Below, in pieces: positions 40,879 to 46,795 of a DNA stretch of 64,000 bases. This stretch comes from Candidatus Nomurabacteria bacterium (GTDB lineage Bacteria > Patescibacteriota > Minisyncoccia > Phycocordibacterales > UBA9973), in assembly GCA_026396015.1 (NCBI GenBank), contig JAPLXP010000002.1, positions 5,502-69,501 on the forward strand. Direction: 5' to 3'. Each line of letters begins with the position of its first letter. Position 1 is the first letter of the stretch. Under the pieces are notes generated by a model. The model searched no databases, had not been told where the DNA came from, and saw only the letters and a program-made list of their open reading frames with translations. The translations under genes were made by a program, and so were the position numbers.

Positions 40879-41376
40879 TTAATTCGTGAGATTTCCTATT
40901 TTAAAACTTGCGAGTTCTGACGCTGGACGACGCTGACCACCATGCTGACCATTGAATGCATCTGACCCATCAATACCACAAAGAGAAAGGATTGCTCTTG
41001 ATCCTCCTGGGTGCTGACTGATAAATGAAGTCACGTCGTACACATTGCCATTCACAGCCGTCCAACAAGATGAAGCAGAGGCGTGCTTTGCAACATCATC
41101 CAATGTGTATCCTGACTTTACAACTGGAGCTGGAGTAGGCTTTGGTGTCGGTGTCGGTGTTTTTGGAGTATTAGTAGCTGGGGTATTAGAAGCCGGTACA
41201 TTATTCACCACAGGGACATTGGATGCCGGAGTAACACTTGAATTAACAACATCAATATTTTTGTATTGGTTATTAAAATTACCGCCCTTAGATGCGGGGT
41301 CTGACTTTAATAAAATAACACCACCTCCAATAATAAATATCGCAATAGCGACTAAACCAATCATTTTTTTATTCAT
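40879..41376 (-). CDS. membrane-anchored cytochrome b5-like heme/steroid-binding domain protein with a Pro/Thr-rich linker
   Basis: C-terminal domain HASASSCWTAVNGNVYDVTSFISQHPGG...GQHGG matches the cyt-b5 fold signature. Confidence 0.7.
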   Translation of the reverse strand: MNKKMIGLVAIAIFIIGGGVILLKSDPASKGGNFNNQYKNIDVVNSSVTPASNVPVVNNVPASNTPATNTPKTPTPTPKPTPAPVVKSGYTLDDVAKHASASSCWTAVNGNVYDVTSFISQHPGGSRAILSLCGIDGSDAFNGQHGGQRRPASELASFKIGNLTN

Positions 41377-44134: not shown

Positions 44135-44161
44135 AAAAAGCCTCCGCAACGGAGGCTTTTA
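44135..44161. terminator. bidirectional terminator between the ndk-like and CDPS genes
   Basis: GCCTCCG-CAAC-GGAGGC hairpin flanked by A-runs and T-runs. Confidence 0.6.
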
Positions 44162-44164
44162 AAT

Positions 44165-44821
44165 TTAAATTGCTGTAATAAATCCAAAACCGCGACTGAA
44201 TTTAAAATCATAAAAATCGCTCAAGATATATCTGATGATGCAAATATCCCTGTGATACACATAAGCCATTTTTTCTTTTTCAAAAATACGATCTGCATGA
44301 GATATAAAAGCCAATTCTTTCAATAAGAATTGAATACCTATTTCTACTGCTTCCCCACTCGGAGCCAATACCCCATTAGACAACAGAACTTCGATAGTTG
44401 TTGTCCTCACTGCATTCATAAAATTCTCATCTGATTGATATGCATTCCTTAAATCAAATAGTGCCTCTGTATAATAAATATTGGAATTGAAATTCTTCCA
44501 ACGCAACACCCTAACAGAAGTGGCGACATCAAGAGATTCAATAATCTGATTGCATTTGTTTTCTAAAGCATTGGATTTCTTTTTCGATTTCCTTTCTGCT
44601 TCTTTTTCTGTGTACCCTAGTGCCATCATCGTATGGACTGCTGGCTCGTCGGGTATCATAATATAAACAGAATTCGACCTCTTTGAGGCCCAAGATATTA
44701 GCCTGATTAAATTCTCATCTTTAAAGTAGCTGTTGTTGATACTTACACCGATAATGAGTGCTGTGTCCCTATTGGCTAGGGCTTCTTCGTTCAGAGACGA
44801 ATCTTTGATTTGTATTTCCAT
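44165..44821 (-). CDS. tRNA-dependent cyclodipeptide synthase (CDPS), NYH subfamily
   Basis: ALIIGVSINNSYF (compare AlbC ALIGISAGNSYF and YvmC VLVGISPFNSRF) with conserved Ser and Asn. YTEKEAERKSKK segment parallels YvmC. LLKELAF (the catalytic-Glu region Y..AE.P.F). VYHRD (Tyr-His of the NYH type). Length 218 aa, monocistronic. Confidence 0.8.
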   Translation of the reverse strand: MEIQIKDSSLNEEALANRDTALIIGVSINNSYFKDENLIRLISWASKRSNSVYIMIPDEPAVHTMMALGYTEKEAERKSKKKSNALENKCNQIIESLDVATSVRVLRWKNFNSNIYYTEALFDLRNAYQSDENFMNAVRTTTIEVLLSNGVLAPSGEAVEIGIQFLLKELAFISHADRIFEKEKMAYVYHRDICIIRYILSDFYDFKFSRGFGFITAI

Positions 44822-44854
44822 ATTTTTGTATTTAGTTTTTGAAAGATGTTTTAA

Positions 44855-44882
44855 CTATTTGAAACCGTGCGGTTTCAAATAG
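44855..44882. promoter_or_regulatory. palindrome P1, CTATTTGAAACCGTGCGGTTTCAAATAG, in the divergent CDPS/wHTH promoter region
   Basis: Perfect 13-bp arms around a single central G; 34 bp upstream of the CDPS start codon. Shares an 18-bp core with P2 at 45857-45888. Confidence 0.6.
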
Positions 44883-45003
44883 TTTGATTTATTGTTTTTG
44901 TTTTATTTAAAAGAATCATAATCTGCATATTTGACAATGTATATTTTATGTGGTTATTTAATATAATAGTGTCAAAAAATGACACTTGTGATATACTATA
45001 GAA

Positions 45004-45852
45004 ATGTTACTTTCACTTCATTCTGAAGAAAAAATTGAAGAGACTATTGTAGAGATATTACACAAGGGTGGGCAGACAGGCCCTACCCTACTTGAGAGTG
45101 TCAGAGTAAAGGATAATAAAATTTCAAAGGAAACTTTTTATAGAGTGATACGTAGATTATTGAAAGAAGAAGTTTTAAATAAAAATAAAAGCATCTATCA
45201 ACTCAATAGATACTGGCTACAACGAATATACCAATTCGGAAAAAAGCATATTAAAGAAGAAGTTGTCACAGACAATGACCACATCCTATCTTTCAAGGAC
45301 GGAGACAAAATCAGATACAAGTTCAAAAATCCCAATACTATGGGTATATACTGGACTCATATATACGATATGGTTTATGAAAATCATGACCCAAAGATTC
45401 CCATACTTGTATTCCACCCTCATGAATGGCTGATCTATACTCGAGTAAAATCTGAATTATTTTTCTTGAGTAAATTTAAAGATGAGAAAAAACTAGCATT
45501 ATTCTCTATCGGAGGAAATACACCCCTAGATAAAAAATTTAAAAATGATTGGAATGATGAATATATACAGATAAGTACTGGGACCAGTCATGGATTCAAA
45601 AAGACTGAATACATAAATATCTTAGGCGACTATATATTCAAGATCACAGTTAGTAAAAAATGGAGTGATGATATAGAAAAATTCTTTAACACTCACACAG
45701 AGATGGATAGTAAATCTCAGGCAGAGCTTTCAAAGCTCTGCAATAGAAATGATGAAGTACGGATGCTATTCACTAGATCAAAAAAGGAGGCAGACAAATG
45801 GCGAACAAAATATAAAAAACATTTCTATATACCAAAAGGATACACAAAATAA
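45004..45852 (+). CDS. hypothetical protein with an N-terminal winged-helix-like DNA-binding domain (candidate regulator)
   Basis: N-terminus TIVEILHKGGQTGPTLLESVRVKDNKISKETFYRVIRRLLKEEVL resembles a wHTH; remainder unknown. A TTGACA -35 box and a GTGTCA-N5-TGACAC palindrome lie just upstream. Confidence 0.5.
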   Translation: MLLSLHSEEKIEETIVEILHKGGQTGPTLLESVRVKDNKISKETFYRVIRRLLKEEVLNKNKSIYQLNRYWLQRIYQFGKKHIKEEVVTDNDHILSFKDGDKIRYKFKNPNTMGIYWTHIYDMVYENHDPKIPILVFHPHEWLIYTRVKSELFFLSKFKDEKKLALFSIGGNTPLDKKFKNDWNDEYIQISTGTSHGFKKTEYINILGDYIFKITVSKKWSDDIEKFFNTHTEMDSKSQAELSKLCNRNDEVRMLFTRSKKEADKWRTKYKKHFYIPKGYTK

Positions 45853-45856
45853 AAAA

Positions 45857-45888
45857 TTACATCTAAAACCGTACGGTTTTAGATGTAA
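45857..45888. terminator. palindrome P2, ACATCTAAAACCGTACGGTTTTAGATGT, acting as a bidirectional terminator; sister of P1
   Basis: Flanked by an A-run upstream and a T-run downstream, between convergent genes. Core TAAAACCGTACGGTTTTA versus TGAAACCGTGCGGTTTCA in P1. Confidence 0.65.
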
Positions 45889-45892
45889 TTTT

Positions 45893-46795
45893 TTATTTTA
45901 ATAAATTTAAAGTTCTTTCTTTTATGGATTCATACTTATCCTTTTGCTCCGAGTAGGCATAAAAGGCGAGCGAACCTAATCCTATTCGGAGTTTGTAGCA
46001 GAGTAGGCGCTCTTCGAAATTTTCTAAATTCATGTCTCTATAAGCTTGCTCTGCATTTTTATTTGGGTCATTTTTTATTGACCAAAAGGATAACCATGCG
46101 ACATCATAAATAAAATCTCCATACATAGATTCACCCCAATCTAGGATTCCGGTAATTTTTCCATTGTTCGAGACTACATTATTTGATCCATAATCCGAAT
46201 GAATAAGAAATCTCTCCTCTGGGCAGAATTCCACCAGTTCTTCTATTTTAGAATAAATTTTATCCCACACATCTTTTTCCAAAAAAGATGTGTTAAATAA
46301 TTCATCTTTATTAATATGAGTTCCTACGGCCAAAATAAAATCTTTCCAACTTTCAGACTCCCCTAGACCATCCTTGTTCCATTTCCCAAAACCATTTGAA
46401 TCGCTTATATCTATAGAATTTATTTCTCCCAAGATAGAGATCAGCTCTGGAAGAATTTTCTGATATTCCTCTTCAGGTAGAAGATTGATGGTCTGCCCTA
46501 GAGCTCTCTTGGAAATACAAACATAATGTATATCATCCAATTTGACAGTCTCTATTATTTCGGGAATTGGTAAATCTTTTTTGGTAAAATATTTTGAAGC
46601 ATATTCATCTTTATAAAAACTACGAGCACCTTTATTCACCCGAGCCACCAAATCCAGCCCTTTTGAGTTAAAAGCAAAAGCCTGTGAAGACTCCCCGCCT
46701 TTGAGAAATTCCAATTCTTTTATTTCTGGATCAAAATTTTCTCTCAAAAATGAAAGAACTAGATCCTGATCAATTTTTGTTTTTACTGTAGACAT
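45893..46795 (-). CDS. aminoglycoside phosphotransferase (APH)/choline-kinase-like small-molecule kinase
   Basis: Brenner motif HSDYGSNNV (HxDxxxxN) and ILDWGESMYGD (DWG/DxG region). Confidence 0.7.
   Translation of the reverse strand: MSTVKTKIDQDLVLSFLRENFDPEIKELEFLKGGESSQAFAFNSKGLDLVARVNKGARSFYKDEYASKYFTKKDLPIPEIIETVKLDDIHYVCISKRALGQTINLLPEEEYQKILPELISILGEINSIDISDSNGFGKWNKDGLGESESWKDFILAVGTHINKDELFNTSFLEKDVWDKIYSKIEELVEFCPEERFLIHSDYGSNNVVSNNGKITGILDWGESMYGDFIYDVAWLSFWSIKNDPNKNAEQAYRDMNLENFEERLLCYKLRIGLGSLAFYAYSEQKDKYESIKERTLNLLK

Follow-up and report, generated by a model that had tools for sequence, protein, structure and literature searches.

What does a tRNA-dependent cyclodipeptide synthase (CDPS) do in a bacterium that belongs to the candidate phyla radiation (CPR), and does its gene act there alone? 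The question is raised by a gene on contig JAPLXP010000002.1 of a Candidatus Nomurabacteria bacterium, which we analysed within a 64-kb stretch of that contig (64,000 nucleotides, hereafter the window, to which coordinates refer unless another locus is named). An earlier note on this DNA had described the gene as a stand-alone CDPS gene with an operator-like palindrome upstream. The best explanation of the data presented here is a different one, namely that the locus is a self-contained mobile two-gene module of CPR/Patescibacteria without tailoring genes, in which the synthase gene is joined by a divergent gene for a probable regulator. The two genes of the module are the following:

44165..44821, minus strand: CDPS gene, ATG start, 218 amino acids, NYH-subfamily tRNA-dependent cyclodipeptide synthase
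45004..45852, plus strand: partner gene, 282 amino acids, belonging to no Pfam or NCBIfam family

That the product of the first gene is a member of the CDPS family is virtually certain. The 218-residue frame is present as the note had described it, and its translation matches Pfam PF16715 (E=1.7e-31, 110.1 bits where 27 is the cutoff, with positions 14-215 of the 220-position profile covered) as well as the NCBIfam model TIGR04539 for tRNA-dependent cyclodipeptide synthases (E=1.1e-44, 152.6 bits, cutoff 45). Its top relatives by sequence in the PDB, as found with HMMER, are CDPSs only, with Shae-CDPS (6EZ3, E=6.7e-17) and AlbC (3OQV, E=2.6e-12) accompanied by YvmC (3OQH), BtCDPS (7AZU) and Rv2275 (2X9Q). 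An AlphaFold2 model derived from 51 homologues (predicted local distance difference test, pLDDT, 93.6; predicted template modelling score, pTM, 0.88) has the Rossmann fold of solved CDPSs, which resembles that of class-Ic aminoacyl-tRNA synthetases. All 50 best Foldseek matches of this model in the PDB are CDPSs, and the NYH members come first, with template modelling (TM) scores of 0.82-0.87, and outrank the XYP structures. The family assignment made in the earlier note is therefore borne out by profile, sequence and fold alike.

Judged by its residues the protein belongs to the NYH subfamily, because N30 and Y189-H190 align with the signature residues N40 and Y202-H203 of AlbC. Both the Y-H pair and the G-[IV]-S-x-x-N-S-[YR]-F block on which the note had relied are found, the latter as G25-V-S27-I-N-N30-S-Y-F. 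The basic, tRNA-binding patch on helix alpha4 is partly retained in an alignment to AlbC, where the reference residues are R87, K90, R91, K94, R97-R99 and R101/R102: R77, K80, K81 and K89 are kept and K73, K78 and K82 are extra, and at AlbC positions 94, 97, 98, 101 and 102 the protein has N, E, N, N and Q.

Does the protein also possess the catalytic apparatus of its family? In the HMMER alignment Ser27, Asn30, Glu169 and Tyr189-His190 correspond to S37, N40, E182 and Y202-H203 of AlbC. Ser27, which lies within GVSINNSYF, takes the position of the acyl-enzyme nucleophile, and across the 51 homologues it is invariant together with G25, N30, E169 and Y189, while H190 is conserved to at least 90%. 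The position of AlbC Tyr178, the residue that sets the first aminoacyl moiety in place, is occupied by Phe165, in the block F165-L-L-K-E169-L-A-F, and the same is true of 51/51 close homologues. The first letter of the 'Y..[AK]E..F' block given in the note was thus misread, and of its Ser/Tyr/Glu constellation Ser27 and Glu169 are present but the first Tyr is replaced. The Phe is no alignment artefact, because it is returned by three independent pairwise alignments anchored on the invariant Glu, by a MAFFT alignment with six characterised NYH enzymes (Tyr in 6/6, Phe in the enzyme of this locus), and by an hmmalign mapping that also reproduces the published pocket motifs of CDPS 98, 100, 102 and 103.

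This substitution is the main reason to consider that the protein might be an attenuated or repurposed relative of the CDPSs, that is, an aminoacyl-tRNA-dependent transferase to another acceptor or an aminoacyl-tRNA-binding protein. The Y178F variant of AlbC is described as 'poorly active', with far less phenylalanyl-enzyme formed (PMC3105412; also PMC5935735), molecular dynamics simulations of it show a misplaced dipeptidyl group (PMC5935735), and a number of CDPS candidates that have been characterised show no activity in E. coli. Together with the invariance of Phe165 among close homologues these observations count against an ordinary synthase and make a reduced or altered chemistry conceivable. 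They are opposed by the conservation of the remaining catalytic residues (S27, E169, Y189, N30, H190 and G25 invariant or nearly so), by pocket P1, which is conserved as strongly ([IVL]GMPWFIY) as would be expected of a working substrate pocket, and by a survey of the 150 nearest representatives of 50%-identity clusters from a library of 1.84 billion proteins. At the Tyr178 position 92 of these have Tyr and 52 Phe; His is found twice, Ala and Ser once each, and two fragments stop short of the site. In all representatives that cover it the invariant Glu is present together with the Tyr of the cyclisation step, and in most of them Ser, Asn and His are present too. Since 52 of the 150 carry Phe too, the residue is, on these alignments, natural variation inside the CDPS family and no ground for exclusion from it. 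The free alternation of Tyr and Phe leads us to conclude that the Tyr178 hydroxyl would be dispensable in this branch. We regard it as likely that the protein is an active cyclodipeptide synthase, and hold the attenuated alternative for quite improbable. That a whole CPR clade and about one third of the nearest relatives naturally have Phe in place of a Tyr described as 'essential' bears on the accepted four-residue catalytic model of CDPSs.

The survey also brought to light a few representatives with Cys, Asn or Arg at the Ser27 position; in several the catalytic Ser is replaced by Cys, the block then reading 'PCN' or 'ACN'. The catalytic residues of CDPSs that are called 'invariant' thus vary more widely in nature than the summary in the literature suggests. 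Two explanations of Phe165 were discarded. It is not a mark of proline specificity, as CDPS 100, which makes cyclo(Pro-Pro) (cPP), and CDPS 98 (cPM) keep Tyr. Nor is D58 of the IPDEP motif a clade-specific compensating residue comparable with D58 of ParcuCDPS, as PD(E)P is widespread among the NYH enzymes that have been characterised.

Is the CDPS gene, then, a gene on its own? When the neighbours in the window were compared with related loci by tblastn, the divergent 282-residue gene was found to be kept beside the CDPS gene with 53-62% identity, and thus to be better conserved across these loci than the CDPS itself. The genes for the nucleoside diphosphate kinase (NDK), NUDIX, Pif1, aminoglycoside phosphotransferase (APH) and Maf proteins were never conserved next to a CDPS gene in the same comparison. 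The divergent pair occurs in 10/10 independent core-clade loci with enough upstream DNA, given here by our own identifiers:

Divergent CDPS/partner pair, gap of 108-182 bp: the window, L002, L004, L005, L006, L010, L017, L019, L021 and L022

In four loci of this set the divergent gene codes for a partner of 274-279 residues and lies 114-138 bp upstream of the CDPS gene, within otherwise unrelated neighbourhoods. A protein search with the 282-residue sequence returned 76 proteins of 40-96% identity, none with a Pfam domain, and for at least 18 of these the longest contig has the same size as that of a CDPS match. Even distant partner homologues (40-47% identity) are divergent from a CDPS gene (L024/L025 and L027/L028). 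The label 'stand-alone' is therefore not tenable; the CDPS gene is one half of a two-gene module. Two observations count against a strict coupling and show the partnership to be frequent, not obligate: a sister CDPS subclade (GLSI[RN]NSYF; L007-L009) is without the partner gene, and one partner homologue pairs with a different gene altogether. The latter (L026, 3050..4843) is 41% identical to the partner and divergent from a Rossmann gene of the short-chain dehydrogenase/reductase (SDR) type, which gives a weak Epimerase match and has a GxxGxxG motif.

The genomic surroundings in which the module is found are unrelated to one another and belong to Saccharibacteria, Paceibacteria/Nomurabacteria and further lineages of the CPR, and in locus L019 (5051..7515) the pair lies, together with a SIS-domain gene, inside a ribosomal-protein operon of the spc type, between the genes for L5 and S14. 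Because this insertion site is so unusual, we take the module to be mobile. Searches with PADLOC and PHROGs gave no significant matches that would indicate a defence or phage origin, and base composition gives no signal of horizontal transfer, the GC content of 0.30-0.36 being within the local range. A tailoring oxidase, P450, methyltransferase or transporter is not conserved among the CDPS loci compared, all neighbours except the 282-residue gene varying between them, which agrees with the note's statement that tailoring oxidase and P450 genes are lacking.

Two single loci deserve mention here. In L013 (7931..8318), from another Candidatus Nomurabacteria metagenome-assembled genome (MAG), all that is present of a CDPS is its C-terminal half (residues 111-216), and this directly adjoins the final ~30 codons of a partner gene; it looks like a decayed module from which a single deletion has taken both 5' halves and the shared control region. 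In L006 (9509..10330), from a Saccharibacteria MAG, a second, 30%-identical paralogue of the partner is encoded about 900 bp downstream of the CDPS gene, and the AGTGTCA-N5-TGACACT palindrome described below is absent from this paralogue.

What is the partner? Searches of its sequence against Pfam, NCBIfam and the sequences of the PDB gave nothing above threshold (E>1 in the PDB profile search). Residues 10-75 give sub-threshold winged-helix matches only (FUR, PadR, TrmB, HxlR), and the C-terminal region has no family match in these searches even below threshold. The AlphaFold2 model (pLDDT 89.1) consists of a winged helix (residues 8-67), in accordance with the divergent winged-helix gene of the earlier note, a linker helix (69-84) and an alpha/beta domain with the fold of the phospholipase D (PLD) superfamily (100-272). 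As modelled the partner thus has the combination of winged helix and PLD-fold domain that is typical of a TrmB-like architecture, yet it is no member of the TrmB family by sequence: the best match to Pfam TrmB (PF01978)/Regulator_TrmB, E=0.0043, is below threshold, and such matches occur in 9/54 partner members. Residues K42, Y46 and R50 of the recognition helix are invariant, as is a cluster in the pocket of the C-terminal domain composed of Y105, F107, W117, H119, H140, W142, R147, E151 and D176.

This invariant cluster with its His, Glu and Asp residues might be catalytic instead of ligand-binding, which speaks against a regulator and for the view that the partner is mainly an enzyme or immunity factor, such as a PLD-superfamily hydrolase or transferase acting on the cyclodipeptide, a nucleic acid or a lipid, with the winged helix as an accessory and the conserved palindrome bound by some other factor. 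Catalytic members of the PLD superfamily are defined by the HxKx4D (HKD) motif. The partner lacks it, having H138-P-H-E-W-L-I-Y-T-R147 at this site, without the Lys at +2 or the Asp at +7, and in TrmB and TrmBL2, which share the succession of winged helix-turn-helix, linker and PLD fold, the PLD-fold domain is a non-catalytic effector-binding domain. The invariance of the recognition-helix residues likewise fits an enzyme poorly, and so does the behaviour of the palindrome, which co-varies with the partner and stays at its promoter even where the neighbouring gene changes. We consider the enzyme view unlikely, on both of its points, and the partner to be a probable operator-binding regulator, a judgement that draws on the DNA between the two genes.

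The intergenic region (44822..45003) is 182 bp long in the window and 108-137 bp in the nine other core-clade loci. When these ten regions are aligned the mean column identity is 48% and the only invariant blocks are AGTGTCA, TGACACT and TGTCAAA, which belong to the following elements:

44968..44986, both strands: conserved palindrome AGTGTCA-N5-TGACACT, invariant, predicted operator
44930..44936, minus strand: third half-site TGTCAAA (TTTGACA on the plus strand), invariant in 10 loci, predicted part of the operator
44915..44943, minus strand: predicted sigma-70-like CDPS promoter, TATACA-17-TATGAT
44969..44997, plus strand: predicted regulator-gene promoter, GTGTCA-17-TATACT, with a TGn extended -10

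The exact palindrome is found once in each of 14/14 core-clade loci and in 0/9 other loci, the fourteen including L003 and L020, in which the contig end cuts off the partner gene. It stands 18-20 nt from the partner ATG across loci and has one match in the window against 0.17 expected by chance with up to two mismatches allowed. In part it coincides with the -35 and spacer of the predicted regulator promoter, which ends 6 nt before the ATG, a like arrangement being seen in most related loci; this position would imply autorepression and a regulator mRNA that is probably leaderless. The TGTCAAA half-site lies about 50 nt further toward the CDPS gene (~43 bp from the palindrome, centre to centre) and falls in the spacer of the predicted CDPS promoter, and in the ten loci a TAnnnT hexamer follows 14-16 nt after its start (16 nt in 8/10, counted by eye). 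In a subfamily of 47%-identical regulators the palindrome reads AGTGTTA-N5-TAACACT, with the same base altered in both arms, and at the SDR-linked homologue it is AGTAAAC-N5-GTTTACT at the same position, with the TGTCAAA half-site retained. Because the palindrome co-varies with the protein and the recognition helix is invariant, we infer, on strong comparative evidence, that the 282-residue protein binds it.

The earlier note had placed the operator elsewhere, at a palindrome termed P1. This and the other hairpins of the locus are:

44853..44884, minus strand: palindrome P1 of the earlier note, AACTATTTGAAACCG tg CGGTTTCAAATAGTT, a predicted hairpin in the 5' untranslated region (5'UTR) of the CDPS gene
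44136..44160, both strands: bidirectional intrinsic terminator, a GC-rich hairpin with an 11-bp stem and 6 GC pairs followed by a T-run
45851..45894, both strands: bidirectional terminator with a 20-bp stem, separating the regulator gene from the convergent APH-family gene

Could the CDPS gene be a monocistronic unit run via palindrome P1, acquired exceptionally by a CPR bacterium, with the winged-helix and APH genes as incidental neighbours? Palindrome P1 does exist, as a perfect 15+2+15 repeat (arms of 14-15 bp) 31 nt away from the CDPS ATG. The gene is monocistronic, as the note had said, being bounded by a terminator at 44136..44160 that is common to it and the convergent NDK gene on the plus strand and, upstream, by a gene of opposite direction; and the APH gene has in fact no relation to the module, since comparison does not show it to be kept beside CDPS genes. 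However, palindrome P1 is absent from 9/9 other independent core-clade intergenic regions and, being terminator-like and specific to the window, is not a conserved operator of the module; the conserved element is the palindrome at 44968..44986. When palindrome P1 is folded as RNA of the CDPS strand, a hairpin of 14 bp results (dG -17.6 kcal/mol, z -8.35); on the plus strand it scores as terminator-like, and the terminator at 45851..45894 contains its AAACCGTRCGGTTT core as well. Moreover, the winged-helix gene is the sole conserved neighbour, and CPR CDPSs are already numerous in databases. The comparative data thus largely refute this view, which we hold for very improbable. We read palindrome P1 as a lineage-specific 5'UTR hairpin or insulator insertion; the stretch accounts for the ~60 extra intergenic bp in the window and lies downstream of the predicted CDPS promoter.

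The 14-nt core that palindrome P1 (44862..44875, AAACCGTGCGGTTT) has in common with the terminator (45866..45879, AAACCGTACGGTTT) has these two matches and no others in the whole window, where 0.09 would be expected by chance. One of the two hairpins lies on each side of the regulator gene, and both may be representatives of a small group of palindromic elements of the terminator or insulator type. The terminator marks the right-hand end of the two-gene module.

But which product would the synthase of this module make? The pocket positions defined in AlbC numbering (P1: 33-35-65-67-119-185-186-200; P2: 152-155-156-159-204-206-207; PMC5816076) yield the motifs IGMPWFIY for pocket P1 and TEVSRIC for pocket P2. 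As pocket P1 is near-invariant in the core clade and pocket P2 varies, the first substrate appears to be fixed. The nearest characterised motif pair is that of CDPS 100 from Nocardia concava (CGHPWLLY / TDVHRIP), which makes cyclo(Pro-Pro), followed by the cPX group, whose motif x-G-x-P-W-x-x-[FY] is matched by IGMPWFIY (P1 motifs compared: CGHPWLLY, LGFPWFMF, VGLPWFFF and LGLPWLFF). On these motifs a prolyl-containing diketopiperazine is a tentative suggestion for the product class, and cyclo(Pro-Pro) in particular is possibly the product but less probable than the class. Both are weakened by the low identity of 24-29% to the nearest characterised enzymes, which are thus not phylogenetically close, by the unreliability of the cPX prediction outside close relatives pointed out by Gondry et al. 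2018 (PMC5816076), and by the occurrence of similar P1 motifs in cFI or cLV producers (PMC5816076). A transfer of specificity from CDPS 100 is unsafe because of this phylogenetic distance. The name cYY synthase, given automatically to homologues P0002 (80% identical), P0039 and P0051, can be dismissed; cYY synthases have the P1 consensus VG[IV]TMLFN, in which Asn at position 200 is essential for tyrosyl recognition (role of N251/L200; PMC5816076), and IGMPWFIY does not fit it.

How exceptional is such an enzyme in the CPR? The note had taken the host for a CPR-like organism, in agreement with the name of an identical protein at NCBI ('MAG: tRNA-dependent cyclodipeptide synthase [Candidatus Nomurabacteria bacterium]'), but it had also called a CDPS in such a host unusual, and this does not hold. 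Beyond the identical annotated protein, CDPS 90 from Parcubacteria bacterium RAAC4_OD1_1, a member of the XYP subfamily, has been assayed and makes cHP/cHE (Gondry et al. 2018, PMC5816076); its crystal structure is known (ParcuCDPS, 7QB8; PMC7613923). More than 10 further CPR CDPSs, four of them unclassified NYH, stand in Supplemental Data Set 4 of June 2017 (PMC5816076). In a scan of one genome per GTDB species, close relatives of our CDPS (39-50% identity) were found in CPR MAGs only, from Saccharibacteria, Andersenbacteria and 'Patescibacteria group', with Peribacteria at 34-35%. A CPR CDPS as such is therefore already known, annotated and catalogued at clade level, and by itself adds little. 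Our literature search for a CPR-wide CDPS clade or a Saccharibacteria CDPS returned only ParcuCDPS and tables of biosynthetic gene cluster counts, and the literature searched mentions neither the Phe178 clade nor the family of partner regulators and its operator nor the movement of the module; these we regard as modestly new.

Five near relatives of the CDPS (P0193, P0196, P0209, P0225 and P0237; 448-478 residues) are about double its length and have the CDPS domain at the N-terminus. They are probably the CPR CDPS-ABC-transporter fusions of Kerfeldbacteria/Moranbacteria in Data Set 4 (PMC5816076), and if so would have a built-in exporter for their product.

Taken together, we think it fairly probable that the locus encodes an NYH CDPS that makes an untailored, perhaps prolyl-containing diketopiperazine and is set by a divergent, autoregulated TrmB-like factor responding to a small ligand. 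By homology the synthase would take two aminoacyl-tRNAs, transfer the aminoacyl group of the first to Ser27 within pocket P1, form a dipeptidyl-enzyme with the second and use Tyr189, Asn30 and His190 in the cyclisation that releases the 2,5-diketopiperazine. Because tailoring enzymes are absent, the unmodified cyclodipeptide would presumably be the end product. The winged helix of the partner would bind AGTGTCA-N5-TGACACT over its own promoter, causing autorepression, and would control the synthase by binding to the TGTCAAA half-site in the CDPS promoter as well, while the C-terminal PLD-fold domain may bind a small-molecule effector.

Might this effector be the CDPS product itself? The module would then be a minimal synthase-receptor circuit with a logic similar to that of LuxI/LuxR, in which a diffusible cyclodipeptide would be sensed by the PLD-fold domain of the partner, and the partner would in turn switch its own and the synthase promoter via the palindromic operator and the half-site. 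We think this rather doubtful. If it were true, the module would be a horizontally mobile two-gene autoinduction or host-signalling device for ultra-small episymbiotic CPR bacteria and its product the first of a CDPS with a dedicated cognate transcription-factor receptor. Its movement between unrelated contexts across CPR lineages suggests, in any case, a function that is selectable and portable, plausibly signalling or antagonism toward hosts. To our knowledge, CPR bacteria have almost no characterised regulators, which makes a tractable predicted pair of transcription factor and operator rare for them. In the clade described here the synthase forms a tailoring-free module with TrmB-like regulators of a family that had not been classified before, and the operator of this module is invariant and easily testable.

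Two further genes of the window stand apart from the module. The gene convergent on the winged-helix gene (45893..46795, minus strand) encodes an APH-family kinase, in accordance with the note and with its Pfam and NCBIfam matches. It reaches 167.8 bits (E=3.7e-49) against the model of the APH(4)-Ia hygromycin-B kinase, far below the cutoff of 725, so that by sequence its product is an APH(4)-like phosphotransferase; it is not conserved beside the module. At 40879..41376 (minus strand) a protein of 165 residues carries a membrane anchor at its N-terminus, together with a linker rich in Pro and Thr and a haem-binding domain of the cytochrome b5 type. The Pfam Cyt-b5 match was found on the identical gene in L001, and the protein would be an extracytoplasmic b5-type protein in a host expected to be without respiration.

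How does the module compare with known systems? With AlbC of Streptomyces noursei, YvmC of Bacillus, Shae-CDPS (6EZ3) and Rv2275 the synthase shares the Rossmann-type CDPS fold at the TM scores given above, and with AlbC-type NYH enzymes also the catalytic Ser and Glu, the cyclisation Tyr, the N40/Y202/H203 signature and a length of about 220 residues. It differs from the solved NYH enzymes in having only 21-23% identity over the aligned structures, and from the AlbC type in having Phe for Tyr178 and Ala171 for the conserved Pro184. Different from AlbC-type systems, moreover, a dedicated regulator adjoins the synthase gene, and genes for a cyclodipeptide oxidase, P450 or methyltransferase are absent alongside. 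CDPS 100 has G, P, W and Y of pocket P1 in common with our enzyme (at 35, 67, 119 and 200) and T, V, R and I of pocket P2 with a similar D/E, yet it is 24% identical, retains Tyr178 and carries Asp at the Glu182 position.

Closer to home, OGZ44804.1 of Candidatus Ryanbacteria (pockets LGMPWFIY / TGCGRMP; PMC5816076) and OGY31047.1 of Candidatus Andersenbacteria (LGMPWLIY / TGVGRMP; PMC5816076), both as yet uncharacterised, belong to the same wider CPR NYH group, with a near-identical pocket P1 and the same FLKELAF block, whereas their pocket P2 reads T-x-V/C-x-R-M-P as against T-E-V-S-R-I-C here. An Andersenbacteria relative in L008 is 42% identical to our CDPS, and the subclade of the Andersenbacteria type is distinguished from our CDPS by GLSIRNSYF, a C-terminal extension and the lack of the partner regulator gene. 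ParcuCDPS likewise comes from a CPR host and is proven to be active, with a Tyr178-equivalent that does not engage the active site, but it is of the XYP subfamily, has TM scores of only 0.61-0.71 and pockets GAYAWELY / FEWKYTR, and was not among the matches of the PDB sequence search with our CDPS. As for the partner, it has no significant sequence similarity to TrmB/TrmBL2 of the Thermococcales and carries a distinct conserved cluster of His, Glu, Asp and Trp; it is also shorter than TrmB, whose C-terminal sugar-binding subdomain it lacks.

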